Assembly: GCA_963734095.1 (NCBI GenBank)
Contig: CAVTGK010000019.1
Span: forward strand, 11,213-75,212
DNA from: an uncultured Acidobacteriota bacterium
GTDB taxonomy: Bacteria > Acidobacteriota > Vicinamibacteria > Vicinamibacterales > UBA2999
Direction of reading: 5' to 3'
DNA length: 64,000 nucleotides
The notes beneath the pieces are model-generated. The model ran no database searches. It was not told the origin of the DNA and saw nothing but the letters and a program-made list of their open reading frames with translations. Made by a program: the position numbers and the translations under genes. Positions 5,861-58,584 of the stretch are shown in pieces; position 1 is the first letter of the stretch, and each line of letters opens with the position of its first letter.

Positions 5861-6830
5861 TCAGAAATAATCACTCCGCCAATACACCACCTGCGATGCC
5901 TCCAGCGGAGGCAGCGGCAACGCGCGATCTTTGAGCGGGCGGATCATCAGCACTTCTGTCGTCCGCTGTCTGTCGGTGCGCGTGATCTGCGGAGGCGCAA
6001 ATCCGTGCGGGAACCAGGCGTCAATCTCGGGTACTGGCTGGTGCGGCGTTCGAGCGAGCATGAGTTGCAGCATGGCACCAACGCGGGCGCCCGTCGGATC
6101 GCGATCGCCCGCATCTTCGATGAACCACCGGCCCTGATGAATCGTGGAGATCACGTAGGCGACCGCCTGAAGCCCCTCTTCGGTCACGAGAAACTCGGTC
6201 TCGCGCAACCCGGCAGGACCGAGGCCCGCCAGCAGGCGACGCTTCGTCACGCCGAACTTGATCAGGTCCTCTGTGCGGTCGAGGGCCAACCGCGCGCCGC
6301 GTGACCGCGCGGCCGCCATCTCGACGATCGACGGCAGATCGCGGTCGTCACCGGCGCGCACCAGGACCGCGGGCGTCCCACGGCCGCGTGTCACCTCGAG
6401 CCGCGACTCGAGCAGCGGCACCGGCACAAAATCAATGGCTTCGTAGAACGCCGGCGCGATCTCCGAGAACAACATCGCGTATTCGTAGCCCTCTGCTTCC
6501 GCCGCATCGAGCATCATCGCCATCAGGCGGCGGGCGCCGCCACGGCCCGCGGCGGCCCGGTGACGTGAACACGGCGCCGATGCCCAGGACACGGCGGATT
6601 CGGCCATCGATTCGGGCGCTCAGGTCATACCGCTTGGCACTGGAGGTGACCGTTCCCTGCTCGACGAGCGCCACGCGGTCGAGATGCGAAGCGCCCCATG
6701 CCGTGCGCCGTTGCGCTTCCCAGAACCGCACATACGCGTCAAAGGTCAATCCATCGCCCCATAATGGGAAGGATTCTCGTTGGATTTGCTCGAGATGTGG
6801 GCCGGTGGCCGGAACAAGCTGATCGGTCAC
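5861..6830 (-). CDS. GNAT family N-acetyltransferase with C-terminal Eis/SCP2-like extension, one frameshift
   Basis: GTG at 6830 gives VTDQLVPATGPHLEQIQRESFPLWGDGLTFDAYVRFWEAQRR...GIGAVFTSPGRRG (tail of ORF 6432..7784). A frame change near 6545 leads into ORF 5861..6607 (RGGARRLMAMMLDAAEAEGYEYAMLFSEI...), which carries the GNAT R-x-x-G-x-G/A motif. Confidence 0.7.
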
Positions 6831-6890
6831 GAGCTGGTTAAACCCCGGGGCGACTGGAAGTGTCCAACAAGGCAGGTGAGAGGGTATCGC

Positions 6891-8660
6891 ATGAGCGCTT
6901 TCTCCGTAACCGCGGCACGTTGCCTCCTCGTCGGACTGCTTGGCCTGGTCGTGTCGCAAAGGCCGACCGCGGTAACCGCCGCCGGCAACATTCCCAACGA
7001 CGAACGAGCGGTCGTTCACGCCCTCAATCGCCTGGCATTTGGCCCGCGGCCTGGCGACGTCGATCGCGTGCGGAAGTTGGGGCTCGCCACGTGGATCGAT
7101 CAGCAGCTTCGACCGGACCGGATCAACGACACGGCCATGGACTCGCGCCTTGCAGGTCTGACGACGTTGTCGCGAGAGTCTGAGGAGCTGGCCCAGGACT
7201 TTGTCGCGGCCCGACAGGAGCGGCGACAGCGCCAGCTTGCAACCGGACGCGAGGGCGCCGCTGAGGGCACGACCACTCCCGGCCAGGCGACTCAACGCCC
7301 CGGTGACGCTATGGAGCCAAAGGGGGAGCCAACGGGGGAGCCAAAGCGGGAGCCCCTGGGGGAGCCCATGGGCACCAGCGGCCAGCGCCCTGCGCTCATG
7401 AGCGAGGCGGCCCAGCGCGAGCGCCGCGCGTTTGCCGAGATGGCCGAGGCCAAGATTCTCCGCGCGGTCTACAGCGACCGTCAACTCGAGGAGGTGCTGG
7501 TCGATTTCTGGTTCAACCATTTCAACGTCTTCGCACGGAAGGGTCAGACGGAGATCTACGTCGGCGAGTACGAGCGCGAGGCCATTCGTCCCCACGTTCT
7601 TGGTAGCTTTCGCGAACTGCTTGGAGCAACGGCGAAGAGTCCCGCGATGCTGGTGTATCTCGACAACTGGATGAGCGCCGATCCGAACGCCGCGTCTCGC
7701 CTCGCGAATCCCCGACGACCGAACGCCGGTGCCAATCGGCGCGGGCAAGCGCGTCTCGGAGGACAGCGACCTGGCGCGCAGCAATCACCGAATCCCAACG
7801 CCACCAACCGGATGCCGCGCGGCCTCAACGAAAACTACGCGCGAGAGCTGCTCGAGCTGCACACGCTCGGTGTGGATGGCGGCTACACCCAGCAGGATGT
7901 CGTCGAGGTCGCCCGAGCGTTCACGGGCTGGACGATCGGCCGTCCCGCCGATCCCGGGTTCCGCTTTGTCGCGGCCATGCACGATCGCGGCGCGAAGAAA
8001 GTGCTCGGGCACAATCTTGCGGCCGGCAGTGGCATTGAAGACGGCGAAAAAGTCCTGGACATCATCGCGTCTCACCCGGCGACCGCTCGCCACATCGCGT
8101 TCAAGCTCGCCCAACGCTTCGTGAGCGATGCCCCGCCGGATGACGCTCGTCGATCGCGCGGCGGAGACGTTTCACCAGGACCAAGGGCAATCTGCGCGAG
8201 GTCGTGCGAACCATCGTCACGTCGCCCGAGTTCTTTGCACCGGCGGCGTATCGCGCGAAGGTGAAGACACCGTTCGAGTTCGTGGTGAGCGCGCTTCGCG
8301 CAACCGCCGCGGATGTGCGGCAGGCGACCGCCACCGTGCGCGCGCTCGCGGGCCTGGGCATGCCGCTCTATCTCTGCCAGCCGCCGACCGGCTACGACGA
8401 GACGGCCGACACGCTGGGTCTCGTCCGGTGCGCTCGTCAATCGGATGAATTTCGCGCTCGCAATCGCCGGCGGACAGATGCGCGGCGTGCGCGTCAGCGA
8501 TCTGTCGACGACGCCGTCGACGGCGCCGCGAGCGCATCGTCCGCGACGCGCTCGCCGGCGACGTGTCAACGACCACGCTCGAGACGATTGCGAAAGCGAC
8601 AACCGTCGAACAGGCGATCGCGCTTGTCATCGGCTCGCCCGAGTTCCAACGACGCAGTAG
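6891..8660 (+). CDS. DUF1800 domain-containing protein, several frameshifts near the 3' end
   Basis: ATG at 6891 preceded by GGTGAGAGG. Signal MSAFSVTAARCLLVGLLGLVVS. Family blocks seen: LNRLAFGPRPGD, LVDFWFNHFNVF, NENYARELLELHTLGVDGGYTQQDV. The C-terminal part is split over ORFs 6780..8264, 8204..8689 and 8313..8660 and ends ...LVIGSPEFQRR. Confidence 0.8.
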
Positions 8661-8677
8661 TGCAGATCGTTGGACGT

Positions 8678-8739
8678 CTTGCTTCGTGACTTCGGCCCTT
8701 CGTGGCACGTGACTCCGTGGTTCCGTTGTTCCGTGTTGG
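8678..8739. repeat. CTTCGTG/TTCCGTG-family repeat cluster
   Basis: cttgcttcgtgacttcggcccttcgtggcacgtgactccgtggttccgttgttccgtgttgg, located between the DUF1800 and DUF1501 genes. Confidence 0.8.
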
Positions 8740-8754
8740 CTCTAGGGGTCGACC

Positions 8755-10074
8755 ATGGTAACGAGACGAATCTTCCTGAAGTCGAGCGGCTTGGCGATGG
8801 TGACGCTCGGGTTCGCGCCGTCGTTTCTGGCGCGGACCGCCGAAGCGGCCGACGCTCGCGAGCGCAAGCTTCTCATCGCCGATCTTTCAACGCGGCGCAG
8901 TCGACGGGCTCAACATGATCGTGCCGTTCGGCGAGGGCGACTACTACCGCGTCCGGCCGTCGATCGCGATCCCACGGCCGGGCACGGGCGACGGCGCGGC
9001 CGTCGATCTCAACGGGTTCTTCGGGCTGCATCCGCGGATGGCGCCGCTCAAGCCGTTCTGGGACAACGCAGTCGCTGGCGATCGTGCACGCCTGCGGATC
9101 GCCGGACAGCACGCGCTCGCACTTCGACGCGCAGGACTACATGGAGTCGGCCACGCCGGGCGTCAAGAGCACGAAGGACGGCTGGCTGAACCGCTATCTG
9201 CAGGTGGCGCACGAAGGCGAGACGCCGCTGACCGCCGTCGCGATGACGCGCCAGATGCCGCGCTCGCTGCAGGGCACGCGCCGGCGCTTGCGATGGGCAG
9301 CGTCGGCGAGTTCGGCGTGCGCGGCGGCATGGCGGCACGCGACTCGTTCGAAGCGGCCTACGCGTCGGCCGCCGATCAAGTGCTCAAGGGAACGGCGAGA
9401 TGATGCGTTCGACGCGATGCGGACACTGTCGGCGCAACCGGGCAACGGCCGTATCGGCCGGCCAACGGCGCCGACTATCCGCGCTCGCCGTTCGGCCAGT
9501 CGCTGCAGGAGATCGCGCGGCTCGCCAAGGCGGACGTCGGCCTGGAGATCGCGTTCGCCGAGAGCGGTCAGTGGGACCATCACATCAACGAAGGCGGCGC
9601 GACCGGACAGATCGCCAATCGCCTCGACGATTTCGCCGCGGCATCGCCGCGCTCGCGCAGGACCTCGGCGATCGGATGGCCGACACGATCATCCTGACGA
9701 TGTCGGAGTTCGGTCGCGCGGTCGCGGAGAACGGCAACCGCGGCACCGACCATGGGCACGGCAACGCGATGATGCTGATCGGCGGCGAACGTCAAGGGCG
9801 GCGAGGTCTACGGCCATTGGCCGGGGCTGAAAGCCGAGCAACGCTTACGAAGGCCGCGACCTCGAAGGTGACGACCGACTTCCGCGATGTCTTTGGCGAG
9901 GTCGTCGATGCGTCACCTCGGCGCCGAGCGAACAGACCGCCGCGCGCAGTGTTCCCGGGATATGGCGTCAAGCCGGCAGCGTTCCGGAACGTCATGTCGG
10001 ACGGGACAGGTACAGATCACGCGAAGACACGAACTGATGATGCTCGAGCCACGGGCTCATCGATGATCTCGTGA
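8755..10074 (+). CDS. DUF1501 domain-containing protein (Tat signal), multiple frameshifts; 3' end uncertain (about 10000-10074)
   Basis: Twin-arginine leader MVTRRIFLKSSGLAMVTLGFAPSFLARTAEA. Pieces lie in ORFs 8755..9189, 8915..9403, 9084..9830 and 9400..10074, with sulfatase-like blocks HACGSPDSTRSHFDAQDYMES and GRAVAENGNRGTDHGHGNAMMLIGG. The DUF1800/DUF1501 pairing is a common arrangement. Confidence 0.75.
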
Positions 10075-10109
10075 TCTTCGTGCGCTTCGTGGCCGTGTCT
10101 CGTGATCGG
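10018..10109. repeat. inverted CACGAAG / CTTCGTG repeat pair
   Basis: Left arm cacgcgaagacacgaac (10018-10034). Right arm ctcgtgatcttcgtgcgcttcgtggccgtgtctcgtgatcgg (10068-10109). Confidence 0.7.
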
Positions 10110-10136
10110 CTGTCTGCCACGTGACATGATGATCGC

Positions 10137-11283
10137 GTGACCCTGAACGATCTGCCGACGCCGGCCGTGCTCATCGATCGCGCGCGCGCCCTTGCCAACA
10201 TCGATCGCATGCAGGACGCCGCCAACGCGCGCGGCATCCGCGATGCGGCCGCACGCCAAGACCCACAAGAGCCCGCTGGTCGCGCGGTGGCAGATCGATC
10301 GCGGCGCCATTGGCATCTGCTGCGCCAAGCTGGGCGAAGCCGAGGTGTTCGCCGACGCGGGCTTCACCGACATCCGGCTGCCCTATCCGATCAATCCCGA
10401 TCAACGCCCCGCGCGTCCTCGCGCTGCTCGACCGCACCGACGCTCTCGTTCATCGTCGATCACCTCGACGGTCGCGCGCGGCGTGGTCGGACGCGATGAC
10501 CGCCGCCGGGCGCACGCGTGGACGTGCTGGTCAAGGTGGATGTCGGCTTCCACCGCTGCGGCATCGATCCCGATCCGCGACGGCGCGTTCCGTTCATCAC
10601 AGGCCGTCGCCTCGCTGCCCGGGCTGCGCTTGCGCGGGCTGCTGTCGCACGCCGGCCACGCGTATCACGCCGCGTCGGAGGACGAGCTGCGAGCGATCGC
10701 CGAAGACGAAGCGCGGACGCTGCGGACGCTTGGCCGAGGCGCGCGCGCAGGCCGGCGTCGGCATCGACGGAGCTGAGCGCCGGCGCGACGCCGACCGCGC
10801 GCTTCTCGCTCGAGCAGGACGGCCTCACCGAGTACCGCGCCGGCAATTACGTCTACTTCGATCGCACGCAGGTCGGCCTGGGCGCGGCGACGATGGACGA
10901 CTGCGCGCTGACGGTGCTGGCCACGGTCGTGTCGCAAGCCCGCGGCCGACCGCATCATCCTCGACTGCGGCAGCAAGACGCTGACCTCCGACGGCGCGCG
11001 CGGCTTCATCGCCGCTCGCCGGGCCACGGCGCGGTCTTTCGCGAGTTGCGATGCCGCCCGGGCCAGGCCCGACGATGACTTGATCGTCGAGCGGCTCTCG
11101 GAGGAACATGCGACGGTCCGTGTCGCGTCGGGCCACACGCGCGCTCGAGCCCGGCGATCGCGTGCGGCTCGATCCCCAATCACTCGTGCGTGGTGTCGAA
11201 TCTGGTCGATCAGGCGTGGCGTGGATGGACGACGGGATCGTCACGGCCACTGCCGATCGCCGCTGCGCGGGCGGATCACGTGA
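10137..11283 (+). CDS. D-TA family PLP-dependent enzyme (D-threonine aldolase / D-serine deaminase-like, alanine racemase N-terminal fold), many frameshifts
   Basis: GTG at 10137: MTLNDLPTPAVLIDRARALANIDRMQ... Blocks RPHAKTHKSPLVARWQIDRGAIGICCAKLGEAEVFADAGFTDIRLPYPINP, DVLVKVDVGFHRCGIDP, LRGLLSHAGHAY and TEYRAGNYVYFDRTQV are spread over at least 5 frame pieces. The last frame ends at TGA 11281-11283. Confidence 0.7.
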
Positions 11284-11288
11284 GTGAC

Positions 11289-11383
11289 GGTTCAGGGTTC
11301 CATGGTCAACGTTCCATGGTTCAATGGCGTAGTCACGCGGAGCGGATCAAGAACTTGGACCTGGAACTTCGAACCTGGAACAC
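11289..11383. repeat. inverted GGTTCCAKGG / CCTGGAAC repeat pair upstream of the BMC-H gene
   Basis: Left arm ggttcagggttccatggtcaacgttccatggttcaatgg (11289-11326). Right arm caagaacttggacctggaacttcgaacctggaacac (11348-11383). The element ends 3 nt before ATG 11387. Confidence 0.8.
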
Positions 11384-11386
11384 TAG

Positions 11387-11707
11387 ATGGCCAAGACCCC
11401 GCCGGACACAGCCCAGAAGTCGGCGAAGCCGCTCGGCATGGTCGAGACGCGCGGCCTGGTCGGCATGATCGAAGCGGCCGACGCGATGGTCAAGACCGCC
11501 AACGTCGTCTTCGTCGGGTGGCAGAAGGTCGATGCCGGCCTGGTGACGGCGATTGTCCGCGGCGACGTGGGCTCGGTGAAGGCGGCGACCGATGCCGGCG
11601 CGGCGGCCGCACGACGCGTCGGGGAGCTGGTCGGGGTCCACGTCATCCCGCGACCGGACGACGACCTCGATAAGGTCTTTCCGATTACGGCCGAAGAAGT
11701 GCTCTGA
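11387..11707 (+). CDS. bacterial microcompartment shell protein, BMC-H (PduA/EutM/CcmK type)
   Basis: Intact 106-aa ORF: ...[75 protein letters not shown]. It is near-collinear with canonical BMC-H (Pfam BMC) proteins. Confidence 0.9.
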
Positions 11708-12212
11708 CCGCTGCGGTTCTGGCGCCTCGTCCGCGCCTTGCGGCTGCGTCGCTTCGGAACTTCCGTCCGCTGCTCTTTCGCGGGCCACGAGCTGCCGCAG
11801 CTTCAGGTCCTGTCCGACCATCAACAGCGGTTGCGTCGGGTTCTCGAGCACGTTGTAGATCTCGCCGGCCAGAGTGCGGGCAAAGATCTGATGGCCGTCG
11901 ATGAAGAGGGTCAGCGGCCCTCCGCCCTCGATGGCTTCGAACAGCCTGACCTTGAATCGCGAACGCAACACGTCGAGCAGTCGGCGAATCTCCGGCGATT
12001 GAAAACCCGCGGCGTCGCAGGTCGGCCAGCACCATGAGTTCGAGGAGCTCGACCGGCGTGTAGCGACGTTCGGTGAAGCCGCCAGATTCTGTCTTGTGAG
12101 GGGCCACCGAGGGAACGAACAGTCGGCGCGTATGCCACCATTGCAGCTGGCGAGCGCTCAGTCCGGTCAGGGCTGCTACCTCGCGAGATGTGTAGAGTTT
12201 CTTGAGTCGCAA
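11685..12212 (-). CDS. MerR-type HTH transcriptional regulator, one frameshift; 3' end uncertain
   Basis: N-terminus [36 protein letters not shown]...[24 protein letters not shown] (ORF 11685..12212). It continues after a frame change near 11990 in ORF 11333..11971 ([29 protein letters not shown]...). The tail would overlap the convergent BMC-H gene. Confidence 0.5.
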
Positions 12213-12249
12213 CTCGTGTCCTGGCCCGCTCGGACGATTCTAGTGTCCA

Positions 12250-12537
12250 CTAGGAGCGATTGAACACGCGCTCGGCCATCGCGGCTCCCGCAAAGTCCTT
12301 CTCGGTCAACCCGCCTTCGGAGTGCGTCGTGTAGGTGAGCGTCACCTTGCGGTAATTGATCAAGATGTCCGGATGATGGTCCGCGGCTTCGGCGCCCGGC
12401 ACCAGCCGCGACACGAAGTCCACCGCGCTCGGAAAATCCTTGAAGACAAACTGCTTGCGAATCGCGTTGCCGTCGATCGCCCACCCTGATAGCTCGCGAA
12501 GTCGGGCCTCTGCGTCGGCTTTACTGAGTGTCGCCAT
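12250..12537 (-). CDS. phhB: 4a-hydroxytetrahydrobiopterin dehydratase (pterin-4-alpha-carbinolamine dehydratase)
   Basis: Intact 95-aa ORF. The pattern LSGWAIDGNAIRKQFVFKDFPSAVDFVSRLVPGAEAADHHPDILINYRKVTLTYTTH is the classic PCD signature (HHPD...Y..V). Confidence 0.85.
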   Translation of the reverse strand: MATLSKADAEARLRELSGWAIDGNAIRKQFVFKDFPSAVDFVSRLVPGAEAADHHPDILINYRKVTLTYTTHSEGGLTEKDFAGAAMAERVFNRS

Positions 12538-12783: not shown

Positions 12784-13899
12784 TCAGATCCGCCCGAGAC
12801 GCGATGGCGCCACTGCCGCCGGCGGCTCGCTCGACGCGTTCTGAACGATATCCCTCACGACTGCCGCGGTCAGCGGCGCGAGCAGCACGCCGTTACGGTA
12901 ATGGCCGGTCGCGTAGATCAGCCCAGGAACGGCCGTCGACCGGCCGATGATGGGCAGCCCGTCGCGGGTGGCGGGCCTCAAGCCCACGCGCACTTCCGCA
13001 AACGAAGCTTGCCACAAATGCGGCACCAGGGAGCAACCGGCTTCGAGGAGATCCCGGACACCGGCAGCCGTCGCGCGCTCGTCGAAACCGGCGTCTTCGA
13101 CCGTCGCCCCGACGAGCACGCGTCCGTTCAGCCACGGGACAATGTAGCAGTCGGAACCCCAGATCACGTGACGCAACGGTTGCGAGGTTGGCCATGCCAA
13201 GTGAAGCAACTGACCGCGCACGGGCTTGACGTCGACTCCCGGGAGGCCGTTGATAGTGACCTGCCCCGCCCAACTGCCAGCCGCCAGCACCACGTGATCG
13301 AAACGCGACGGCCCGCTCGGCGTTTCGACCAGAACGCGGTTGTTGGGGGCGGAAGCAATCGACAGGACGCGTGTCTCGAGTGCGAAGGTCGCACCGCCGC
13401 GCATCGCGGCTCCTGCGAGAGCTTCTGTAAGTTCGGGAACGCCGACGAAGCCGTGTCGCGCCATCAGCAGGCCGCCGGCGGCGCCCGTCGCCGCGAGCGG
13501 CTCCAACGACCGCAGATCATCGGGCTCGACCCAGCGGGCGTCAATGCCCGCGCCTTCGAATGCCGCGGCCGCGCCGCGCAGCCGATCGGCATGCTCGGTG
13601 TCGAGCGCGACTTCGAGTGTTCCGTTGCGCGTGTATTGAATCGGCAGGCCGCTCGCCTTCATCACCCGGCGAACGAAGTCGTCATAGAGATCAAGGCTGC
13701 GCCGCCCAAGCTCGCGGAGTGGGCTCGAATCGTGGCCCTCGATATAGGGAGCAAGCACGCCGGCCGATGCCTGCGAAGCGCCGCCGCCGACGCGGCGAAG
13801 GTCGAAGACGCTGACTCGGGCGCCGGCCGCCACCAGTTCGTAAGCGCAGGCGCACCCAATGACACCGGCACCAACGATTGCGACCTCGGGGGAAGACAC
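12784..13899 (-). CDS. thiO: FAD-dependent glycine oxidase (ThiO-like)
   Basis: Intact 371-aa ORF. Has VAIVGAGVIGCACAYELVAAGARVSVFD, VRGQLLHL and GLIYATGHYRNGVLLAPLTA, typical of ThiO/DAO-family oxidases. Confidence 0.75.
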   Translation of the reverse strand: MSSPEVAIVGAGVIGCACAYELVAAGARVSVFDLRRVGGGASQASAGVLAPYIEGHDSSPLRELGRRSLDLYDDFVRRVMKASGLPIQYTRNGTLEVALDTEHADRLRGAAAAFEGAGIDARWVEPDDLRSLEPLAATGAAGGLLMARHGFVGVPELTEALAGAAMRGGATFALETRVLSIASAPNNRVLVETPSGPSRFDHVVLAAGSWAGQVTINGLPGVDVKPVRGQLLHLAWPTSQPLRHVIWGSDCYIVPWLNGRVLVGATVEDAGFDERATAAGVRDLLEAGCSLVPHLWQASFAEVRVGLRPATRDGLPIIGRSTAVPGLIYATGHYRNGVLLAPLTAAVVRDIVQNASSEPPAAVAPSRLGRI

Positions 13900-13967: not shown

Positions 13968-14013
13968 GCACGGAACGGCCTCGCGCACCTTGCGACAGGT
14001 TGGCAACTCTCAG

Positions 14014-16644
14014 CTAGAAGCTCAGCGACGCGCCCAGCTCGATGCGTCGAGCAGCGGCCGCCGACGTGGCGGTGCCGAAGTAAGGCGAGAGCTGATTGCC
14101 CACGAACGAGTTCAGATTGACGGTGTTGAACAGGTTGAACACCTGAACATAGAGATCGAGCCGGTACCGGCTGGCCGATCCATCCATCATGACCATCTGG
14201 ACTGGACTGCCGCCATCACCGGCTCCGCCCATGGGCCCGCGCTGCGCATTGGCTGAGGGCGGTGGCGGCGGAGCGCCAATCATCACGGGCCCGTCACCGA
14301 GCAGGCCACCCAGATTGAAGGAGCGGTTCATTCGAAAGTTGACGTTCCACTGCGACGCGCCGCGGGCGCTGTTGCGGCCGACACCATCGGGTCAATCGTT
14401 GAACACCGTGTCGCCGTTGTCGTCGATGCCGGTGGTAATCGTGTAGGGCGGCGCCGACGAATACTGCGCCTGCAAGCTGGCGCGAACTCCGTAGCCAAGC
14501 GGCGTGTTGGCCATGAAGAACACGCGGTGGCGAATGTCCATGGACGAGGGACCCCAATCGGCATCGGGATTGGTGCTATCCGATGGGCAGCGCCAGCAGG
14601 CGAGTCCGCGTGGTTACGGGCGTTCGCATACTGGTACATCACGTTGCCCATGATCCGGCGATTGGGCACGCGAAGCATCATCGCGACCGTGATGCGGTCC
14701 GCGGCACGCTCGCCGGTCGACCCGATCTCGGTGATGTTGCCGGCCGTCGAGTCGGGTCGGACGCCGTCAATGGGCGCGTTGACGTTGATCGAGCGCAACA
14801 CGTCGGTGGCGCGCGTGAACATGTAGTCGGTGCGGAAGTTGCCCCATTCGCCGAAGGCTCGGTCGTACCCGATCGAGGCCTGGTGAATCGTCGGCTGGGT
14901 CAGCTGCGGACCAAGTTGAATGCGGCTGGCCGCGAGCGACGTGCCAGCGCCAGAGTCGACGTCCGGGTATGAAGGATTGAGGATGATCTCGTCGATCTGA
15001 TGGGTCCCATCGACGCGAACGGTCTGCTCATACACGTTCGAATCGAGCCAGTCGTAGAAAATGCCATAGCCCCCGCGAACGTTGGCCTTGCCCATCGACC
15101 AGGTGAACGCAACGCGCGGCGCCAGGTTCCACTTGTCGTCGATATTGGTCTGCACTTCCTGACGGAGACCCAGACTCAGGTTGACGTTCTTGCTCACGCG
15201 GAAATCGTCCTGCAGATACCATCCGGCCTCGAATTGTGAGTAGCTGACGTTCGGGTCGCCGACTCGGCGCTGATAGGTCTGCGGCCGTGACGCGAGATGG
15301 TCGTCGAGGCTCGAGAACGTGAACGTCCCGTTGGCGTTTGTCTGCGTCGTGCTGTCCCACCAGCCGCCATCCACCTCCAAACCCGCCCGCAGCGCGTGCT
15401 TGGCGACAGTAAAGTCGAAGTTCTGAGCCAGAGTGAATTGCCGTCCTTCCCGGACGCCCGATTGACCGGCGCCACCTGACGTAAAGGCGTCGAGCACGCG
15501 AACCGTGGGCGCCGTCGAACCAGAGAAGTACGAGCGTCTGCGATTGTGTGACTTCAAACCGCAGCTCGCTGAACACTTTCCTGCCGATCGTGCGGGTATT
15601 GCGCACTCGCAGCATGTCGTTGATGGCCTCGGTCTCGTAGGCCCGCTCGGCGAGGTCGAAATCGCCGACGCCGAGGTTTTGGCGCTTGTCGCTCCGGCGT
15701 GAGTACTCTGCCCGAATGCTGCTGGTCGGGCTCAGCGCGTGCTCGAGCCGCACGTTGGCATTGACACTATCCACCGGACGCCGGACTTGATCGTTGATCG
15801 GCCCCGTCGGCGTGGTGGCCACGATGGTGCGGGCGTCGTAGGACATGTTGCCGTCCGCAGCAATCGACAGGCTGGTCTTGCCCTTCGCGATTGGGCCCTG
15901 GGACGTGAACATGAAGCGCTTGTGCTGTTCGGGCGCGACCTCGGTGGCAAACGCGTTGCGGGCGTTCAGCGATTCGTCACGAAACCCGAAATTGAAGTTA
16001 CCGCGCCAGCCCCCCATGCCCGGTCGGGTGATGACCTCGACGCGCACCATGCCGGCCTCGTGGTACTCGGCGGCATACGAATTGGAGTGGAACCGAATGG
16101 ACTGGATTTGATCCTTGGGTGGCAGACGACCACCACGGAACCCGTCGATGAAGATCTGCGCGCCAGGCCCTGCCATCTGGCGCAGTTGCTCGGCCATCTC
16201 GTCGGGGTCGTCGGAGAGGCCGTCGATGTCGTCCTTGCTCAACGTCTGCGTGAAGCCATTGTCACGCCGCGCCGCCGCATCTCGTTCTTGAACGAAGACC
16301 TCTTCGCGGATGGCAACCGTCATCGTCGCCATCGCGGTGTTGATGCCGCGCTTCACTGCGAACGGCACGGTGAACCCCTGAAACCCCTCCGCTTCGACCT
16401 TGATCTGATGAGCGCCGGGCATGAGGCCAGTGAAAGCCGCGACGCCGCTCTGATCGACGACGGTCTGCTTCTCGATGCCCGATGGGTCGATGAGCGTCAC
16501 GATGGCGTGAATGAGCACGGCCTCGGTCTCGTCGCGCACGGTCACGCGGAGGGCCGACTGATTCTGCGCTGCTGCCGCCACCGGCAGCAGTGCGGACCAC
16601 GCAAACACCGTGACACACACCAGACGCAGCATCGCAGTCTTCAT
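14014..16644 (-). CDS. TonB-dependent-receptor-like outer-membrane protein with N-terminal CarboxypepD_reg domain, frameshifted
   Basis: Signal MKTAMLRLVCVTVFAWSALLPVAAAAQ followed by LRVTVRDETEAVLIHAIVTLID (ORF 15028..16644). Barrel pieces lie in ORFs 14328..15557 and 14014..14331. The C-terminus ...RIELGASLSF ends in a terminal aromatic residue. Confidence 0.75.
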
Positions 16645-16647
16645 GAC

Positions 16648-17620
16648 CTACTTCTTCTCGAAGAGTTCGGCCTTTACGGACGGGTTGACCTTGACTTTCT
16701 CGAGCGTCCATTCCTCGACCGGCTTGCCTTCTACGGCCTGAGTGAGGCGGTGAGGCAGCATGATGCCATCGACCTTCTTGAAGTCTGCCAGGTAGAGCGT
16801 CACCTGGCTGGGCGCAGGCGGCGGCATCGACTCGATGCGCCGTCGCATCTCCTCGGGGCTTGGACGCTGACCATCCGCGGGCGCACCTGCAGTCGGCGCA
16901 CCACCACCGGGGGGCGGTGGCGGCGGAGCGTCGGGCCCGCCGGGGCCTCTGCGTCCGCCGCCTGGTCCCCCCGGACCCGCCGATCATGTTGAATCGCGGG
17001 CGGACTTCCATGTACTGCAGCATCAACGGCAAATGCGTCTGCTGATCAACGAATAGCCGGACGGCCTGACCCGCTTCGTTCTTGATCTCGAGCACGTCGG
17101 CTTTACCTTCGGGCGCTTCGGCAACGGCGACGTACGCCGGCTGCAGGTTGGCGCCGCCAGTGAACGCGAGCAGATAGCGATTGAACTCGTTGCGGAACCG
17201 TCGCAGCCGCGCCTCTTCGATCTGCTCGGCATTGAGCTCCTGCCCCGGCGGTCCCTGGCGCATCACGATCTGCATGCCAGGGCCCATGCCGCCGCGGTTT
17301 TGTATGTCTTCCCACGACGCGTTGCCGGCCAGCACGGACGTCCGCTCGATCGAGACCCCACCCATCATCTCGGTGTCCTCGCTGCGATGCATGTGATCCG
17401 GCAACTGCATCGTCAACACCAAGGTGCCCTTGACCTGCCGCTGCCCCATCTCACGCGCGAACGGACCTTCGAGGCTGAGTGTCTTGAGCTGCGCGAGCTT
17501 GTCGCCCCCGAGTGCCTGTCTGACCTGCGCCATGACCTCGGCGCCTTTTTGTGTCGTGTCCTGTGCCGTGGTTGCCGTCGAACTCGCAGCGACGATGGCC
17601 GCGAAGACCAAGCGTTTCAT
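16648..17620 (-). CDS. hypothetical secreted protein, frameshifted within a G/P-rich low-complexity stretch
   Basis: Signal MKRLVFAAIVAASSTATTAQ (within ORF 16262..17656). The C-terminal piece is ORF 16648..16848 (...VTLYLADFKKVDGIMLPHRLTQAVEGKPVEEWTLEKVKV). Its stop lies 3 nt upstream of the TBDR-like start. Confidence 0.5.
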
Positions 17621-23073: not shown

Positions 23074-24435
23074 TCAACCACTCCGTCGAGCCTCGAGGAT
23101 CTTGATGAATGAGCGTGCCAGCAGTTCATCGTGTGTCAGTCCAGTCTCGCGCGCTTCCTCGATGGTGAGCGCACCAGAGCTCAAACCTCGAACGAAGAAG
23201 TTCAGCAACCCTTGCCCGGTCGCGGCATCGTCAAAGATATCGCCGACCAGCGTTGCCTGAGCCGCCTTGTCGATAAACGACCGCAGGCGCAGCGTGGCGG
23301 CCGGTCGAGCCGAGAGGAAGAATGTGTAGACGGCCGCATAGCGCGTGGGCAACTGGGCGGGATGGAGATCCCACCCCTGGTAATAGCCATTGACGAGCGA
23401 ATGCGATACGTCATCGAAGTGAGTCTTCCACGCCCGGTGGACGGCCTCGTGATTCTCGCGTTGTTGATTCGCCGAAAGAGGAACGCTGTCCGTCGCCCTG
23501 TGAACTGGTACCGGCATGACATTGGTGCCACCGTCCGACAGGCAGACACCCGTCTGCGCGAGGGCCACTTGCATGAGATGCCTGGCAAAGTCGCAGGCCG
23601 CGTGCCGCATGTGCTGCCACGCGGCCGTGATTCCGCACAACGCCGTGTAGTCGTAGGTGCCGAAGTGCGCGCCGACAACGCGGCCATCCCCCGCGGCGAC
23701 GAGCGAGCGCAGCGCCGACGTGCCGTCGATGGCGAGAATCGATTGCGGCGTTTCGATCATGATCTCGAGCCGAATGGACCGCGCTGGCAATCCGAGGCGA
23801 CGTTCGAGCAGCGCGCAGGCTCGCGCGACCGCTGACACATGCTCCGGCGCCATCACCTTGGGAATCGTCACGGCGAAGTTCGGCGGCAGCCGTTTGCCGG
23901 CGGACCGCGCGAGCGTGCCGACGAACCGATCGAGTGTTCGAAGGCTTCGAGCGTGCAGCTCTCCGGACATCGGCTTGATGCGAATGCCAATGTAGGGTGG
24001 GAGCGTCCCGCCCTTCAGTCCTCGGCTGACCTCTACCGCGACGCTTTCGGCGTGACCGTCCTCCTCTTGATTACTCCGGTTGCCGTAGCCATCTTCGAAG
24101 TCGATGCGATAGTCCTCAATGGGCTCTCGTCGCAGTTTCTCGACGATGCGCGAGCGAATGGTATCGGCGAGGGAGACGTCGGCCAGACCGATCGCGTGCG
24201 CAAGCGACGCGCCATCGGGGGCGTACTCGTCCAACGCCGCAATCGCCATCGCGCCCAGGCGCGGCGCGGTATCAGCCTTGAACAAATGCGCCCCGCCGTA
24301 AAAAGTGTGAACCGGTTGGCGATCGCCGCTGTCGCCCGGACATGCGCCCGCCACGCGGCGATTGGCACGCTGCAACGTCCTCAGGATCGGCTGGAGGTCA
24401 CGAGGGCTCAGCGTCGCTGATGTGTCACGAGCCAC
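23074..24435 (-). CDS. uncharacterised HpcH/HpaI-aldolase / citrate-lyase-beta (CitE)-like TIM-barrel protein
   Basis: Lower part of ORF 23074..24762. The GTG at 24435 overlaps the HIU hydrolase stop (GTGGCTCGTGA). Motifs [11 protein letters not shown] (acidic metal site), IGIRIKP and [11 protein letters not shown], arranged as in the CitE/malyl-CoA-lyase/HpcH fold. The family assignment is an inference from motifs only. Confidence 0.6.
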
Positions 24436-24762
24436 GGTAAGTCGTGTACCCAAACGGGCTGAGCAGGAGCGGCACATGATAGTGCGCTTCACCCGGCAGC
24501 GTTTCGAAAACGATCGCGATGTGCGGATAGAACGTCGTGAGGCGCGCTCGATCGGAGACCGACGCGTATCGAACGTCAATCGATAGATTCCCGGAATGAT
24601 TGCGGCGCCAGTCGGCACCAAGGTGCGCAGGCGCCCGTCGCCGTCCGTCTCACCGCGACCGACGACCTCCCAGGTGGCATGTCCGCGGTCCCGTTCGAGC
24701 ACGACTGCGATCTGTGCGGCTGGTCGGCCTGTCGATGTGTCCAGCACGTGTGTGGTGATCAT
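24425..24762 (-). CDS. uraH: hydroxyisourate hydrolase (transthyretin-like), one frameshift
   Basis: [24 protein letters not shown]...GIYRLTFDT (top of ORF 23074..24762). A frame change near 24560 then gives ...[35 protein letters not shown] stop, the diagnostic HIUase C-terminus. Confidence 0.85.
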
Positions 24763-26134
24763 GGCCTGCTCGAACGCCGCTCAGTCAACAGACGGCCTCG
24801 CGGTTTTCCACGACTCTCTCCGTCGTGATACACGACTTCGCCACCCAGTAGCGTCGTCATCACTCGCCCCTGCAGTCGCCTGCCCGAGTACGGCGTGACG
24901 GGATGACGATGATACAGCGAGGCACCATCGACGATGGTACTCGAGGGCGGGATCCCAAATGACCAAATCCGCATCGCTACCGGCTGCTATCGCACCTTTG
25001 CAGGCGTCGAGTCCAGCAAGACGTGCCGGTTCCTTGGCGAGCCATCGGGCTGTTCGTTCGAGAGGCACGCCCCGTTCGAGCATGCCTGTCCATACGGCGG
25101 CAAGACCCAACTGAAGCGACGAAATGCCACCCCACGCGTCGAGGAAATTTCCCGTGTCGAGCGCCTTGAGGACGGGCGGCGCCGGAGAGTGATCGGTGGC
25201 AATCAGGTCGATGTCGCTCGTCACGAGTCCTTTCCACAAGCCTTCGCGGCACACGCTCCCACGAATTGGCGGAGCGCACTTGAGTGAAGTGTCGCCATCC
25301 CTGATCTCTTCCGCGGCAAACGTCAGGTAATGCGGACAGGTTTCCACGGTGACGCGCACGCCGTCGCGCCGGGCGTGCGCGAGATCGGGCAGGGCATCTG
25401 GCGTCGCGAGGTGCACGATATGCAACCTGACCTGATATTCCTTCGCGAGCCGTAGCAATAGATCGATCGCAGCGCGTTCGCTCTCGGGCGGCCGGCTCCT
25501 CAACCATGTCGAGTAGCGTCTGGGATCGGCACTCACCGCGCCGAGGGAATCACGAGGGTCCTTGAGCAGTGCCGGAAGCTCCGCGTGGACGAGCAGAGGC
25601 AGGTTGAGCGCGCGCTAACTCGGGCAGGGCGTCGCGAAGGTCCTGCTCGTTGACGTGTTCGAACTCCGCGACACCGGAGGGACTGAGAAAGCACTTGAAC
25701 CCGAGGACGCCCGCTGCGGCCAGCGGCGCCAACTGCCATCGATTGCCGGGGACCAACCCACCCCAGAACCCGACATCCACATGGCATTGGCCGGTTGCCG
25801 CGGCTCGCTTGGCCTCGAAGCCCGTCGTCGAGGTCGTGGCGGGAATGCTGTTGAGGGGCATGTCGACGAGTGTGGTGACCCCGCCCGCAGCGGCAGCCTT
25901 CGTCGCGTGTTCGAAACCCTCCCACTCGGCTCGCCCGGGGTCGTTGATGTGGACATGGGTGTCGACGAGGCCGGGAAGAACGACCAGTGAACCGACGTCC
26001 ATTTCGGGGATGCCGACTGCGGTATCGCTGTGCGACCCGATGCCAGCGATGAGTCCGTTCGCGATACGGATCGTTGCGGGCCGCATCCCGTCAGGCAGGA
26101 CGACGCGTTCGCTACGGACTAAGAGCTGCGACAT
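24759..26134 (-). CDS. allB: allantoinase (cyclic amidohydrolase), frameshifted
   Basis: Pieces in ORFs 25550..26134 (LPGLVDTHVHINDPGRAEWEGF..TKAAAAGGVTTLVDMPLNS), 24781..25536 (VRLHIVHLATPDAL..TVETCPHYLTF..KCAPPIR..IDLIATDHSPAP) and 24759..24974. The stop overlaps the uraH start (ATGA). Confidence 0.85.
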
Positions 26135-26156
26135 GAAGCAATGAACCTTAACCGTA

Positions 26157-26184
26157 GACCGTGGACCGTGGACCGTGGACCGAG
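26157..26184. repeat. (GACCGTG)x3+GACCGAG heptamer array
   Basis: gtagaccgtggaccgtggaccgtgga is identical over 26 nt to 3755-3780. It lies between the uricase stop and the allantoinase start. Confidence 0.9.
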
Positions 26185-26196
26185 GCCTGGTGCCGA

Positions 26197-27031
26197 TCAG
26201 CGCGTCAGCGTGGCTTCGATCAGCCCGTAAGGTTCTTCGGTCGCGACGAAAATCTCGTTGCGATTTTCCTTGCCGAATCGAGTCAAATCAATCGGCAGAT
26301 GATGCTTGTTCGGCATCACCAGTCGAATCGCCCTGACATCGTCTGACAGCTCCAATACCGACTGGCCCATGGCATACAACGTGTGTTGGACCGATTGACT
26401 GTCGTGCTCCGCAAAGGCTTCGAGCAGAGCCTGCCGAACGGCGTGCCAGCGTGGACCGAAGTCCGTGCCGACCCCAGCGTACTGCCAGGTTGCCGTGAGG
26501 GACGTCGCGAGCAGTCGATCGTGGGTCTCCGGCAGCGTGGTGTATTCGTCGCGCGGAAAGCCGGCAAACGCCGAGCCCGATGACTTCAGAATCGTGAGTT
26601 CGCTCACGCCGGCACCGACCGTGATTCGATCGCGGCCGGCTTGCACAGTCGCCAAGCGGGCCTCCTGGCCGCTCCGGATGAACGACTGTCCATGATTGCG
26701 GCCGCCGATGGCGATCGGCTGCCACGGATGCTCGGTAACATCGATGCGCACCTGGTCCAACTTGGGATTTCGCTCCAGGAAATGGTCGGCCAGCCGGAGG
26801 CCGAATGGCTCGGGATCGCCGAGCGGCAGATCGGCTGCCAATGCGTAGACCGTGTTCTTCATCGTGTCGGTCGGCAGAACGTCGCTATTGTCACCGTCGG
26901 TGAACGAAACACCGTAGTCGCCTTCAAATCGAATGGCGATGGTGAGATCCCGCAGGCTATGCTGGGTGGCGCGGCGGGTGACTTGGACAAGCCTGATACT
27001 GCGATTTGCCGTAGGCCGATTCAGCTAGCAT
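26197..27031 (-). CDS. uox: factor-independent urate oxidase (uricase), one frameshift near the 5' end
   Basis: ORF 26197..26862 (TDTMKNTVYALA..., FAGFPRDEYTTLPETHDRLLAT, LVMPNKHHLPIDL, EPYGLIEATLTR) extends upstream as IRLVQVTRRATQHSLRDLTIAIRFEGDY. With a frame change near 26995 it reaches MLAESAYGKSQ (ATG at 27031). It is collinear with bacterial uricases. Confidence 0.85.
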
Positions 27032-28083
27032 GACGAACTCCGAAGAAGGGACCGACGAACGAGTGGGCGCCGATCATAGCACCGCATCCTTCACGGCCCT
27101 CGCGGACCTGGCCTCGGCGCGTCTGGGCGGACGGGCGCTCGAAGCCTCGGACGAGTTTTTTGCATCGAAGTCGAATCTGCTCAAGCCGACGCAGGCGACC
27201 TTCATCCCAGACAAGTTCACATCGCGTGGCAAGTGGATGGACGGGTGGGAATCGCGACGCCGGCGTTCGCCGGGCCACGACTGGTGCATCATCCGGCTGG
27301 GCATACGGGGGGTGGTGCACGGGGTGAACGTCGACACTCGCTTTTTCACAGGGAACTACCCGTCGCACTGCTCGATTGATGCGATGGATGCGGAGAGGAG
27401 TGCGAAGCAGGGCAAGGGTTCGCAGGGATCCCGTGCTCAGTGGACCACGCTCCTCGACCGCACGGAGCTGCGCGGTGATTCGGACAATCTCTTCGCCCTC
27501 GCCGATCGGCGGCCGTGGACGCACCTCCGGCTCAACATCTTCCCGGACGGTGGCGTCGCCCGATTTCGCGCCTACGGCGAGGCCGCCATCGACTGGGCTC
27601 GCGTCGCCCGGTCCCGACGAGCGGTCGACCTCGCTTCGATCCTGAACGGTGGACTGGTCGTCGACGCAAGCGACATGCACTTCGGCGCGCGCGATAACAT
27701 CATCATGCCAGGACGAGCCAAGAACATGGGCGATGGCTGGGAGACGCGGCGTCGCCGAGGACCCGGGTTCGACTGGCTGGTGGTGCGACTCGGCACAACC
27801 GGGCTGGTCACGCGTGTCGAGATCGACACCAATCACTACAAGGGCAACTTTCCCGAGAGCGCGTCAATCGAGGGCGTGGTTTGCACCAGGGGCTCCTGCG
27901 GACGCCCTCGCCCAGGCGCGCTGGCACGAGATCCTGCCGCGTACGACGCTGCAGCCCAATCACCGGCACTACTTTTCGAAGAACCTCCAACAACGAGGAC
28001 CGGTCTCTCATGTCCGGCTCAACATCTTTCCCGACGGCGGCATCAGTCGGCTCCGCGTTTATGGAACCGTGGCAGCGTCTTGA
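27030..28083 (+). CDS. alc: allantoicase, one frameshift
   Basis: ORF 27030..28196 carries two allantoicase repeats (GKWMDGWESRRRR..GHDWCIIRLG; MGDGWETRRRRGPGFDWLVVRLG; NIFPDGGVARFRAYG). A frame change near 27890 leads into ORF 27649..28083 (RLNIFPDGGISRLRVYG). Confidence 0.85.
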
Positions 28084-28564
28084 TCTGGCAAGCGATGACG
28101 AGGCGCGCGCGTTGCTCACTTCCTGCTGCGCCTCAACGCGTTGGGCAGACCGCATGGTCGCCCGACGACCGTTCGGCAGCCGCACCTCACTCCTGACCGC
28201 GGCCACCGAAGAATGGAACACGCTCGGTCCGTCTGACTGGCACGAAGCGTTCAGCCAGCACCCGAAGATCGGAGACCGCCAGTCGCTGCGGGAGCGCTTT
28301 CCAACCACGCACCAGCTCTCGGAACGGGAGCAAGCTGGGTTAAGGGGGGCTTCGGAGCCAATGCTCGACGCACTCGCAGAGGCCAATCGCCGCTATGAAA
28401 AACGGTTTGGCTACATCTTCATCGTGTGTGCAACCGGCAAAAGTGCCGAGGAGATGCTGACACTGCTGGATCAGCGCCTGCCAAACGACGAGACCACCGA
28501 GCTTCGAGTCGCAGCCATGGAGCAGGAGAAGATAACGGCGATCAGGTTGGATGGGTTGCGCTAG
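28061..28564 (+). CDS. uraD: 2-oxo-4-hydroxy-4-carboxy-5-ureidoimidazoline (OHCU) decarboxylase
   Basis: ATG at 28061 within ORF 27881..28564. Motifs: CCASTRWADRMVARRPF, AFSQHPKIG, YEKRFGYIFIVCATGKSAEEML. Confidence 0.85.
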   Translation: MEPWQRLDLASDDEARALLTSCCASTRWADRMVARRPFGSRTSLLTAATEEWNTLGPSDWHEAFSQHPKIGDRQSLRERFPTTHQLSEREQAGLRGASEPMLDALAEANRRYEKRFGYIFIVCATGKSAEEMLTLLDQRLPNDETTELRVAAMEQEKITAIRLDGLR

Positions 28565-30001: not shown

Positions 30002-30526
30002 TCAGGAGCGGTTCTGGCGCGTTCGGTTCTGAATGAGCCGAAGCAGCGCTTCATACCCGGAATCGGGTTGGGCACGATGCACCGCGTCGGCCTCTATCAG
30101 TTGCTCGGCAATCCGGTTCATGCCTTCGACCAAGGTCGGGCCGAACCCTCGTTGCACCTGGGCAACGTAGGCTTCCGCGTTCTCGCCGGACAATCGAATG
30201 CGCTGCGTCATGCGCGTTCCTTGGTCGGCCAGTGGGTCGAAGTGCCATTCGAACGACAGCAACGCCCCCTCGAGCAGGACCTCGACGACGAACGACCTGC
30301 CGGGCACGACGAGACCAATGACCCAGCGCAACGGATCCTGGCCGGGAATGAGGGTCGTGCCTCGCGCGCCCTCTACAAATGGTCCCTCGATCGAGAATCG
30401 CGCCGGCGGATCGTTCCAAGTCGATACGTCGGTGCGAATCTCCCAGGCGAAGTCTGGAGTCACTGCCACGTCAACCGAGTGCTCGAGCACGAGGCCGTCG
30501 CTACGCATGGGTTCGCGCCTCAACAA
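30002..30526 (-). CDS. SRPBCC (START/polyketide-cyclase-like) family protein
   Basis: Intact 174-aa ORF: LEHSVDVAVTPDFAWEIRTDVSTWNDPPA...SFEWHFDPLADQGTRMTQRIRLSGENA. The assignment is based on general family resemblance. Confidence 0.55.
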   Translation of the reverse strand: MLRREPMRSDGLVLEHSVDVAVTPDFAWEIRTDVSTWNDPPARFSIEGPFVEGARGTTLIPGQDPLRWVIGLVVPGRSFVVEVLLEGALLSFEWHFDPLADQGTRMTQRIRLSGENAEAYVAQVQRGFGPTLVEGMNRIAEQLIEADAVHRAQPDSGYEALLRLIQNRTRQNRS

Positions 30527-33067: not shown

Positions 33068-33145
33068 GCCCACTCCTCTCAGCCGTCCCACTATAAGAGC
33101 ATTCCGGGGATTCGGATGGTAGGTTCGCGAGTGCGCGAAATTTCG

Positions 33146-36327: not shown

Positions 36328-36398
36328 ACAGGGCCTGTCCCCCGTGACAGGGCCTGTCCCGATGACAGGGCCTGTCCCCCGATGACGGCCGTCCCGTG
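36328..36398. repeat. tandem about-19-nt repeat ACAGGGCCTGTCCCCCGATG x3 (+ degenerate 4th)
   Basis: Copies at 36328-36346, 36347-36364, 36365-36384 and a degenerate copy at 36385-36398, in the divergent region between the methyltransferase and mmsA. Confidence 0.9.
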
Positions 36399-36440
36399 GT
36401 CATGGCTGGCCCGAGGGCAACGCTATATAGTGAGCCCATC

Positions 36441-37902
<1,462 letters not shown>

Positions 37903-38009
37903 GACAGACCAAGACACGGTAGCCACGAAGGCACGAAGACTGACTCGGGTTTTCGTGCACGTTTGTCTTTGCTACCTGTCTTCGTGACTTCGTGCCCTTC
38001 GTGGCTACG
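37903..38009. repeat. palindromic GCCACGAAGGCACGAAG ... CTTCGTGCCCTTCGTGGC element
   Basis: It fills the whole mmsA-to-dihydropyrimidinase gap: ...ggtagccacgaaggcacgaagactgactcgggttttcgtgcacg...cttcgtgacttcgtgcccttcgtggctacg. Confidence 0.9.
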
Positions 38010-38016
38010 TTTCAAT

Positions 38017-39420: not shown

Positions 39421-39509
39421 GCCACGAAGGGCACGAAGACACGAAGCAGAAAAAGCACGAACGAGCCAGCGCTTCCTCAACGAGCTTCGTGACTTGGTGC
39501 CTTCGTGGC
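39421..39509. repeat. palindromic GCCACGAAGGGCACGAAG ... CTTCGTGACTTGGTGCCTTCGTGGC element
   Basis: Left arm 39421-39447, right arm 39484-39509, located between the dihydropyrimidinase and aminotransferase genes. Confidence 0.9.
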
Positions 39510-39537
39510 GTCGTCCTACGATCTATGGAAGATTGCT

Positions 39538-43313: not shown

Positions 43314-43446
43314 TGGTATTTGCACGGTATAATTTGACTTTCGTCTTTTATTCGTATAACCGTCGGTCGCCCTCACCCGATTCGGCCGCCGCTATTTATG
43401 ACAGCGGTTGTCATTGTTGACCTCGGAGAATTGAGGACAGATCACC

Positions 43447-44674: not shown

Positions 44675-44713
44675 CGCGCGGCATTGTGCGGTTGAGAACC
44701 AGGAGCACTGTTC

Positions 44714-58556: not shown

Positions 58557-58584
58557 AGGGCCCTCCGAAGGCTGGCTTCATGTG

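Follow-up and report, generated by a model that had tools for sequence, protein, structure and literature searches.

The stretch of DNA analyzed here (the window; 64,000 nucleotides from an uncultured bacterium of the Acidobacteriota) carries at 11387..11707 a gene for a 106-amino-acid hexameric shell protein (BMC-H) of bacterial microcompartments (BMCs). This gene probably encodes an accessory (satellite) shell protein of the ACI microcompartment, a type that is specific to Acidobacteria. The assignment is carried by the diagnostic residues of a distinct and strongly conserved BMC-H paralogue, of which the gene is a member, and by the co-occurrence of this paralogue with ACI main loci in related genomes. 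The gene and its parts are the following.

11387..11707, + strand: gene for a BMC-H shell protein of 106 aa, an 'Asp-pore' satellite paralogue of the ACI-type microcompartment (open reading frame (ORF) list, PF00936, orthologues)
11387..11431, + strand: N-terminal extension of 15 codons (DNA alignment with the related loci L003, L001 and L005)
11432..11686, + strand: BMC domain core, residues 16-100, free of indels (Pfam, DNA alignment)
11522..11539, + strand: pore loop Q46-K-V-D49-A-G51, invariant within the satellite clade (alignment)
11648..11659, + strand: edge motif P88-R-P-D91 (PRPD) (clade alignment)

A sequence-only reading of the window had recognized the ORF as a BMC-H, and a Pfam search bears this out: PF00936 matches residues 16-90 with 95.8 bits (cut-off 24.5; E = 1.5e-27) and covers profile positions 2-75 out of 75. 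The protein comprises a single, non-permuted BMC domain that aligns colinearly with PduA (3ngk; residues 14-99), EutM (residues 15-101) and also the BMC-H of Haliangium ochraceum. Its top match among solved structures is 6ner, an engineered BMC-H tandem fusion, with PduA 3ngk (E = 9.5e-35) and EutM 3mpw (E = 4e-33) among the best that follow. The best NCBIfam model for the BMC-H is EutM, which at 128.4 bits stays below its cut-off of 133, and a lookup of the exact 106-aa protein returned no match. A scan for consensus promoters and terminators around the gene gave a single antisense promoter-like match and nothing usable. A gene finder based on GC3 favoured an antisense ORF (11333..11971) over the BMC-H and was hence not used for this locus.

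The Asp-pore paralogue and its relatives

Relatives were sampled with the window protein as query, which yielded 80 genome loci that were split into two kinds by identity. Those with 77-96% identity, from more than 40 Vicinamibacterales-type genomes, occupy orthologous positions, with the shared gene order given further below. Most of those with 60-78% identity are ACI main loci, in which an aldolase gene is followed by a BMC-H gene, three BMC-P genes, a gene for a small Cys-rich protein with an encapsulation peptide (EP) and a 2-hydroxyacid dehydrogenase gene (PF00389/PF02826). The others in this range are Asp-pore satellites from Acidobacteria subdivision 4 (L042-L047, L063) and a small number of unrelated BMC loci (e.g., L049, L054, L062). 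Among the loci listed, the close relatives of the BMC-H all come from metagenome-assembled genomes (MAGs) of Acidobacteriota, many of them labelled Vicinamibacterales.

An alignment of 44 satellite sequences against 93 unique main-locus BMC-H proteins separates the two paralogues at around ten near-invariant positions. With the main-type residue in brackets after that of the window, these are R22 (K), G26 (A), N39 (K), Q46 (E), V48 (I), D49 (G), S63 (A), G83 (S) and F98 (L), to which the loss of the His in the PRPH motif is added. The pore loop reads QKVDAG in satellites versus EKIGAG in the main-locus BMC-H. When the BMC-H residues are mapped by alignment to PduA, D49 falls on Gly39 and A50 on Ser40, which belong to the pore-lining loop of PduA. 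A hexamer would therefore have six carboxylates at its pore. The His of PRPH is replaced by D91 in the window and by A, D, G, S or V across the satellite clade, while K36, N39 and R89, the equivalents of PduA K26, N29 and R79, are kept in 100%, 100% and 98% of the clade, respectively. In PduA, K26 (the antiparallel Lys), N29, R79 and the PRPH motif are edge (tiling) residues. The satellite cores are highly uniform, with an average mutual identity of 91% (44 unique sequences).

The distribution of the paralogue extends over both subdivisions in which ACI occurs. A DNA pattern for [QE]K[VI]DAG[LM]VTA is present in at least 120 loci, nearly all with Acidobacteriota-type labels (Vicinamibacterales, or Pyrinomonadaceae, Blastocatellia and Chloracidobacterium). 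The Asp-pore BMC-H of subdivision 4 is located in the satellite that encodes the ACI aldehyde dehydrogenase (AldDh). L047 is an example, with the order BMC-H, a 591-aa EutE-like AldDh, a fourth BMC-P, DUF711 and the Asp-pore BMC-H, and around 40 further loci are similarly arranged. In a neighbour-joining tree of 158 unique BMC-H cores, the satellite group of subdivision 6 forms a near-exact clade (best-bipartition Jaccard of at least 0.95) in 98% of the bootstraps. The Asp-pore groups of subdivisions 4 and 6 join exactly in 52%, whereas the subdivision-6 satellites never join the main type. This gives moderate support to the view that the Asp-pore BMC-H of both subdivisions would be one old ACI accessory paralogue.

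The DUF711 gene (PF05167) lies directly upstream of the Asp-pore BMC-H in L047 (8519-9880) and in around 30 other subdivision-4 loci (e.g., L042, L044, L166, L201, L242). In these Pyrinomonadaceae and Blastocatellia, it is often found downstream of the ACI AldDh and the fourth BMC-P, and a gene for a low-affinity iron permease often comes next. DUF711 may be an unrecognized ACI-associated gene.

ACI main loci in related genomes

Judged by its closest loci, which are from Acidobacteriota and Vicinamibacterales MAGs, the host of the window belongs to Acidobacteria subdivision 4 or 6; Vicinamibacteria we take to be subdivision 6. In the BMC catalogue of Sutter et al. (2021), the ACI type counts 125 loci, which are solely from Acidobacteria and mainly from subdivisions 4 and 6 (PMC8217296). 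The main locus comprises a PF00596 aldolase that bears an encapsulation peptide at its C-terminus, a 2-hydroxyacid dehydrogenase, a BMC-P triplet and one or more BMC-H, and the AldDh is encoded on a satellite locus (PMC8217296). Extra ACI BMC-H genes are described as occurring 'by itself' or together with the AldDh, such that solitary satellites are already on record, and the hidden Markov model class that the catalogue gives to the solitary ACI BMC-H is H_marine (PMC8217296).

Whether satellite and main locus share a genome was checked by matching assembly accessions across the scans for the BMC-H, the aldolase, the pore motif and the neighbouring enzyme gene discussed below. The scan with an aldolase alignment added 80 main loci among the matches listed. 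Among these matches, 15 genomes carry the satellite gene and, elsewhere, a complete or contig-truncated ACI main locus: SMAG_U3631, SMAG_U9522, SMAG_U11218, MFD02360.bin.2.183, SRP150892_co2_2, MFD05567.bin.2.77 and MFD04212.bin.1.138, as well as the assemblies with prefixes DATLXN, JACCSI, MELE, JAYQOO, CAVSWN, DASSOM, DASXGC and JACDBQ. One of these main loci (L101, from the same genome as satellite L008) was verified by Pfam. The suggestion of the sequence-only reading that the gene is a satellite of a distant locus is supported by these relatives and by the solitary ACI BMC-H genes of the catalogue (PMC8217296).

Within the window, the shell gene stands apart from main-locus genes, as the 64 kb contain no BMC-P and no signature aldolase. 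We ran tblastn against the window with the parts of the ACI main locus L057 (class II aldolase, BMC-H, BMC-P paralogues, small EP protein and 2-hydroxyacid dehydrogenase) and with the acylating AldDh and fourth BMC-P of L047, and the BMC-H itself was the sole match. Similarly, among 50 window ORFs surveyed with Pfam there was no second PF00936 and no PF03319 (EutN/CcmL), PF06130 (PduL) or PF00596 (class II aldolase). The gene is also not part of a self-contained metabolosome locus: within the window, no BMC-P, BMC-type AldDh or phosphotransacylase is found near it.

The same isolation could be read as that of a true orphan, i.e., a BMC-H that works outside any microcompartment (as a self-assembling sheet, tube or scaffold, or moonlighting in the metabolism of D-amino acids or glycine) in a genome devoid of BMCs. 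The absence of any further shell or BMC core gene from the 64 kb and the loss of the PRPH edge His agree with such a reading, and a main locus is attributed to this genome by way of its relatives. Against it, a full ACI main locus (or one cut by its contig end) occurs in all 15 genomes in which the same-genome check was possible, the paralogue family is confined to the two ACI-carrying subdivisions of Acidobacteria, the subdivision-4 copy is physically linked to the AldDh and a BMC-P, and the key tiling residues are conserved. We therefore regard an orphan as very unlikely.

The neighbouring enzyme gene and the frameshifts of the region

The genes next to the BMC-H are the following.

10137..11283, + strand: gene for a pyridoxal 5'-phosphate (PLP) enzyme of the D-threonine aldolase (D-TA)/D-serine dehydratase family, frameshifted (tblastn, 10137-11264; Pfam PF01168 and PF14031 on orthologues)
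11735..12212, - strand: MerR-family regulator, convergent, frameshifted once near 12000 (Pfam MerR_1; tblastn segments 12212-11997 and 12007-11735)
12250..12537, - strand: 4a-hydroxytetrahydrobiopterin (pterin-4a-carbinolamine) dehydratase (PCD), context gene (NF002017, 100.9 bits, cut-off 80)
12784..13899, - strand: glycine oxidase ThiO, context gene (TIGR02352, 306 bits, cut-off 250.8)

These identities had been proposed from the sequence and are confirmed by tblastn, Pfam and NCBIfam. The orthologous loci share the order GNAT, DUF1800, DUF1501 and D-TA (a block that is not always present), followed by BMC-H, MerR, PCD, in some cases a small ORF, and ThiO. The best genome match is L003 (MAG MFD04850.bin.1.250), with 90% protein identity and 96-99% DNA identity in parts of the region (97.7% for ThiO and 98.9% for PCD). 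In L002, from a Vicinamibacterales MAG, only the MerR gene is inverted (10405-10902) and lies on the same strand as the BMC-H, while it is on the opposite strand in the other orthologous loci in which a MerR gene was found.

The D-TA-like gene is the most constant neighbour of the BMC-H. Counted from the BMC-H, 26 of 43 orthologous loci have it directly upstream, and five more Vicinamibacterales loci, which stem from the motif scan, are without it. Counted from the enzyme, a BMC-H is present at most 1.2 kb downstream of 60 of the 75 D-TA orthologues, and 11 have no BMC-H within 4 kb. In the 44 loci with both genes adjacent and on the same strand, the D-TA stop codon is separated from the first in-frame BMC-H ATG by a median of 19 nt, and by 50 nt or less in 28 of them, so that a two-gene operon is the commonest arrangement. 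No other adjacency in the block is conserved as well (DUF1501 is found upstream of D-TA in around 44%), and the pair is kept where the flanking genes change. All cases nonetheless lie within one inherited syntenic block and are thus not independent events. A distance of 13 kb separates the two genes in one genome (L306/L275), and among the loci examined the subdivision-4 Asp-pore BMC-H never adjoins a D-TA gene. Where D-TA is absent, the upstream gene varies (DinB-family, AldDh fragment, hisA/hisF, PadR with a permease, DUF1501 or a large beta-sandwich protein). Two such D-TA-less loci have a gene upstream of the satellite BMC-H that resembles pyrroline-5-carboxylate dehydrogenase by its motifs (L016, 9116-9802; L033, 6445-8019). 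The copy of L016 is adjacent, fragmentary and assigned to PF00171 by Pfam, that of L033 is 2 kb off, and coincidence is possible.

The predicted chemistry of the enzyme does not resemble that of a microcompartment aldolase. In an orthologue, the PF01168 and PF14031 domains span residues 14-358 out of 377, and residues 6-374 of the protein align with the D-threonine aldolase 4v15 (379 aa). Among solved structures, its best relative is the D-threo-3-hydroxyaspartate dehydratase 3wqc (E = 6.6e-49). An N-H-x-C metal motif is invariant in 16 orthologues and matches the H-x-C of 3wqc and of 3anu (chicken D-serine dehydratase), whereas the H-x-D of D-threonine aldolases is not present; 4v15 has H-v-D at the same place. 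Two mutant entries, 3wqg and 4pb3, deviate from 3wqc at precisely the Cys and the His of this motif, which marks these two as studied catalytic or metal-binding residues. The products are therefore predicted to be a 2-oxo acid and ammonia rather than acetaldehyde, and the earlier idea of an acetaldehyde-releasing aldolase is not supported. The encapsulation-peptide-like helix that the sequence-only reading proposed to look for was not found either, since the alignment with solved enzymes from end to end (the ranges given above) leaves no terminal extension in which a peptide could reside. By contrast, the ACI aldolase has around 100-120 aa beyond its domain.

One possibility is that the D-TA-family enzyme and the Asp-pore BMC-H act jointly as a satellite module, which would open the ACI organelle to a D-hydroxy-amino-acid substrate. 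The enzyme could be recruited to the shell, e.g., through the N-terminal extension of the BMC-H, or its product could be fed through the specialized pore. The conservation and tight spacing of the pair and its persistence through changes of the flanking genes speak for such a module. Enzyme-plus-shell satellites are moreover accepted by the catalogue (PMC8217296), and the ACI AldDh resembles an acetylating acetaldehyde dehydrogenase (TIGR02518), albeit with 583 bits, below the cut-off of 620. The H-x-C motif speaks against it, as no aldehyde is expected, and so do the missing N- or C-terminal extension for an encapsulation peptide, the 13-kb separation in one genome and the single origin of all adjacencies. 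Around 40-45% of the satellite genes furthermore have no adjoining D-TA but unrelated upstream genes, and the subdivision-4 paralogue has no such partner at all. We consider the module unlikely on balance. Its more specific form, a two-gene ACI module in which a cytosolic PLP enzyme without encapsulation peptide docks on the N-terminal extension of the tile or is served by the negative pore, is rather improbable. If true, it would link D-amino-acid catabolism to the ACI microcompartment. Of the 'minimal association with the adjacent enzyme' suggested earlier, the conserved and mostly operon-like adjacency stands, but the aldolase chemistry and the encapsulation peptide do not. The sequence-only reading had also named two findings that would jointly count against it, a canonical BMC locus elsewhere in the genome and an unconserved adjacency: the former is seen in relatives as the ACI main locus, while the latter is not borne out.

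The region around the pair is rich in frameshifts, which raises the question whether the BMC-H ORF is a non-functional leftover of a decaying locus or an artefact of assembly. Dense single-base indels occur at 6780-11300 and 14000-16650, in the genes for DUF1800, DUF1501, D-TA and a TonB-like outer-membrane protein, such that the stretches of 6.8-11.4 kb and 14-17 kb are riddled with them. Compared with L003 and L001, the D-TA gene of the window has around 29 indel events in 1.15 kb, mainly single-base insertions outside homopolymers. Its substitutions are distributed as 26/15/82 over codon positions 1/2/3. The third-position bias together with the insertion-biased single-base indels indicates a selected coding sequence with consensus errors on top, and a true (old) pseudogene, which would have spoken against a functional link with the BMC-H, was rejected on the same features. 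The frameshifts of the region thus look like assembly errors. In 500-nt bins, the comparison with L003 is a mosaic: 6000-6500, 7500-8000, 12000-12500 and 13000-13500 have no indels and 1-3% mismatches, other bins have many indels, and the divergence is 1-4% in some bins and around 10% in others. The pattern resembles that of a consensus polished unevenly, possibly at places where strains differ.

The BMC-H gene itself is affected only in its extension. The sequence-only reading had counted it among the few genes without frameshift; the ORF is indeed open, but only through two compensating events, a 1-nt deletion and a 1-nt insertion around 20 nt apart (DNA alignment with L003, L001 and L005). 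The 15-residue extension that it described is likewise present as 15 codons, of which codons 9-15 (11411-11431) are out of frame and read AQKSAKP instead of the SPE[IV]GEA of relatives. The extensions of orthologues measure 9-23 aa, are rich in K, E, D, T and P and end in G[ED]ALG. At the C-terminus, the ITAEE reading, which is shared with L001, may be real. The listed end of the MerR ORF at 11685, which gives a 23-nt overlap with the BMC-H, is an artefact of the MerR frameshift. The compensating indels and the damaged surroundings are what a remnant would predict. They are outweighed by the uniformity of the satellite cores and the invariance of their diagnostic residues, by the consensus-error pattern of the D-TA indels and by the recurrence of the same gene order in more than 100 independent assemblies. 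In addition, the substitutions between the BMC-H core of the window and that of L003 are distributed as 3/1/17 over codon positions 1/2/3, and the gene is therefore under purifying selection. A remnant or artefact is largely refuted and seems extremely unlikely.

Proposed role, wider surroundings and known systems

In the interpretation as an ACI satellite, the BMC-H is most likely inserted into ACI shells as a minor tile. Its ring of six Asp residues would change the charge and the permeability of the ACI shell, and the tile may be under its own regulation, as has been proposed for CcmK3/K4 and other satellite shell genes. The gene would, in most Vicinamibacterales, be co-transcribed with the PLP enzyme that resembles D-serine and D-threo-3-hydroxyaspartate dehydratases. 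Co-transcription would probably tie the expression of the BMC-H to D-amino-acid catabolism, without the enzyme being cargo.

Several points weigh against this interpretation. The co-occurrence with ACI main loci applies to the sampled genomes, and we cannot say that it extends to every genome with a satellite. For the genome of the window, an ACI main locus elsewhere is expected from relatives. The ACI shell and the role of an Asp-lined pore are predictions from sequence. Finally, the tight and conserved operon with D-TA argues for some tie to the enzyme that a pure 'permeability tuner' would not explain.

The finding is largely explained by published knowledge, as satellite shell genes are normal for ACI, and it does not represent a new kind of system. 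What appears to be undescribed is the invariant pore-loop Asp, the loss of the PRPH His, the presence of the paralogue in both ACI subdivisions and its usual operon with a gene resembling D-amino-acid dehydratases. The catalogue text mentions neither the pore-loop Asp nor PRP[ADGSV] nor a PF01168/PF14031 operon, and these Pfam numbers have no occurrences in its supplements (PMC8217296). A literature search for follow-up work on ACI returned the catalogue itself only. ACI microcompartments are widespread among soil Acidobacteria, and in both carrying subdivisions they are accompanied by a shell paralogue that is distinct and strongly conserved. The invariant pore Asp offers a concrete handle for experiments on shell permeability, and it may hint at the conditions that lead to a remodelling of the organelle. 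The new points are modestly interesting for researchers of BMC shells.

The rest of the window was surveyed as well. The sequence-only reading had stated that it holds no other BMC component and no aldehyde dehydrogenase. This is correct for a second shell gene and for PF06130, but an aldehyde dehydrogenase gene is present around 25 kb from the shell gene:

36396..37902, + strand: CoA-acylating methylmalonate-semialdehyde dehydrogenase (MMSDH), two ORFs through a frameshift near 37300 (PF00171, TIGR01722)

We considered it as a BMC core enzyme and ruled it out, since it is of the MMSDH type, belongs to a pyrimidine catabolic cluster and has no similarity to the ACI AldDh at E <= 1e-3. The apparent reductive pyrimidine/beta-alanine cluster around it comprises a nucleobase permease (30501-31946), a DHO_dh-like gene (31949-33091), an amidohydrolase (37963-39393) and a class III aminotransferase (39505-40872). 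A purine/ureide degradation cluster is found at 23074-28196, with a 562-aa HIUase/transthyretin-DUF6986 fusion, a split amidohydrolase (24781-26134), uricase (26197-26862) and allantoicase (27030-28196). At 42798-47945, a MarR regulator precedes a MacB-like export system of an HlyD-like membrane-fusion protein (two ORFs), an ABC ATPase and two FtsX/MacB-type permeases. A run of radical SAM genes occupies 55804-63708 on the - strand: two members with a B12-binding domain (57039-58556 and 59319-60896), a plain one (55804-56937) and a further one (62140-63708), together with a methyltransferase (58585-59424).

The closest known counterparts are the ACI satellite BMC-H genes of Sutter et al. Like these, the gene belongs to a host from subdivision 4 or 6, has a single domain, lies off the main locus, keeps mostly standard interface residues and has relatives with a canonical ACI main locus. 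It differs by the invariant pore Asp, the PRP[ADGSV] motif and the PF01168/PF14031 operon of its clade, which are absent from the catalogue text (PMC8217296). The 'EUT module' satellites (EutABC with EutL) of HO and SPU BMCs also pair a shell gene with an enzyme gene and have been suggested to extend the function of the main organelle (PMC8217296). Unlike in these modules, the enzyme next to the gene studied here has no predicted aldehyde-forming chemistry and lacks an encapsulation signal, and roughly 40% of the genomes do not have the pairing. With PduA and EutM, the protein shares the colinear alignment and the equivalents of K26, N29 and R79, while it has KVDAG instead of KIGSG or QIGGG, PRPD instead of PRPH and a 15-aa N-terminal extension, and is encoded outside a pdu or eut operon. 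A further parallel is given by CcmK3 and CcmK4 of the beta-carboxysome, a pair that forms heterohexamers. They are two genes as opposed to the single one here, and serve an anabolic carboxysome rather than a catabolic metabolosome such as ACI. Nonetheless, CcmK3 and CcmK4 are likewise BMC-H paralogues whose pore residues are altered and whose locus is distal from the main operon, and a tuning of permeability under separate regulation has been proposed for them.

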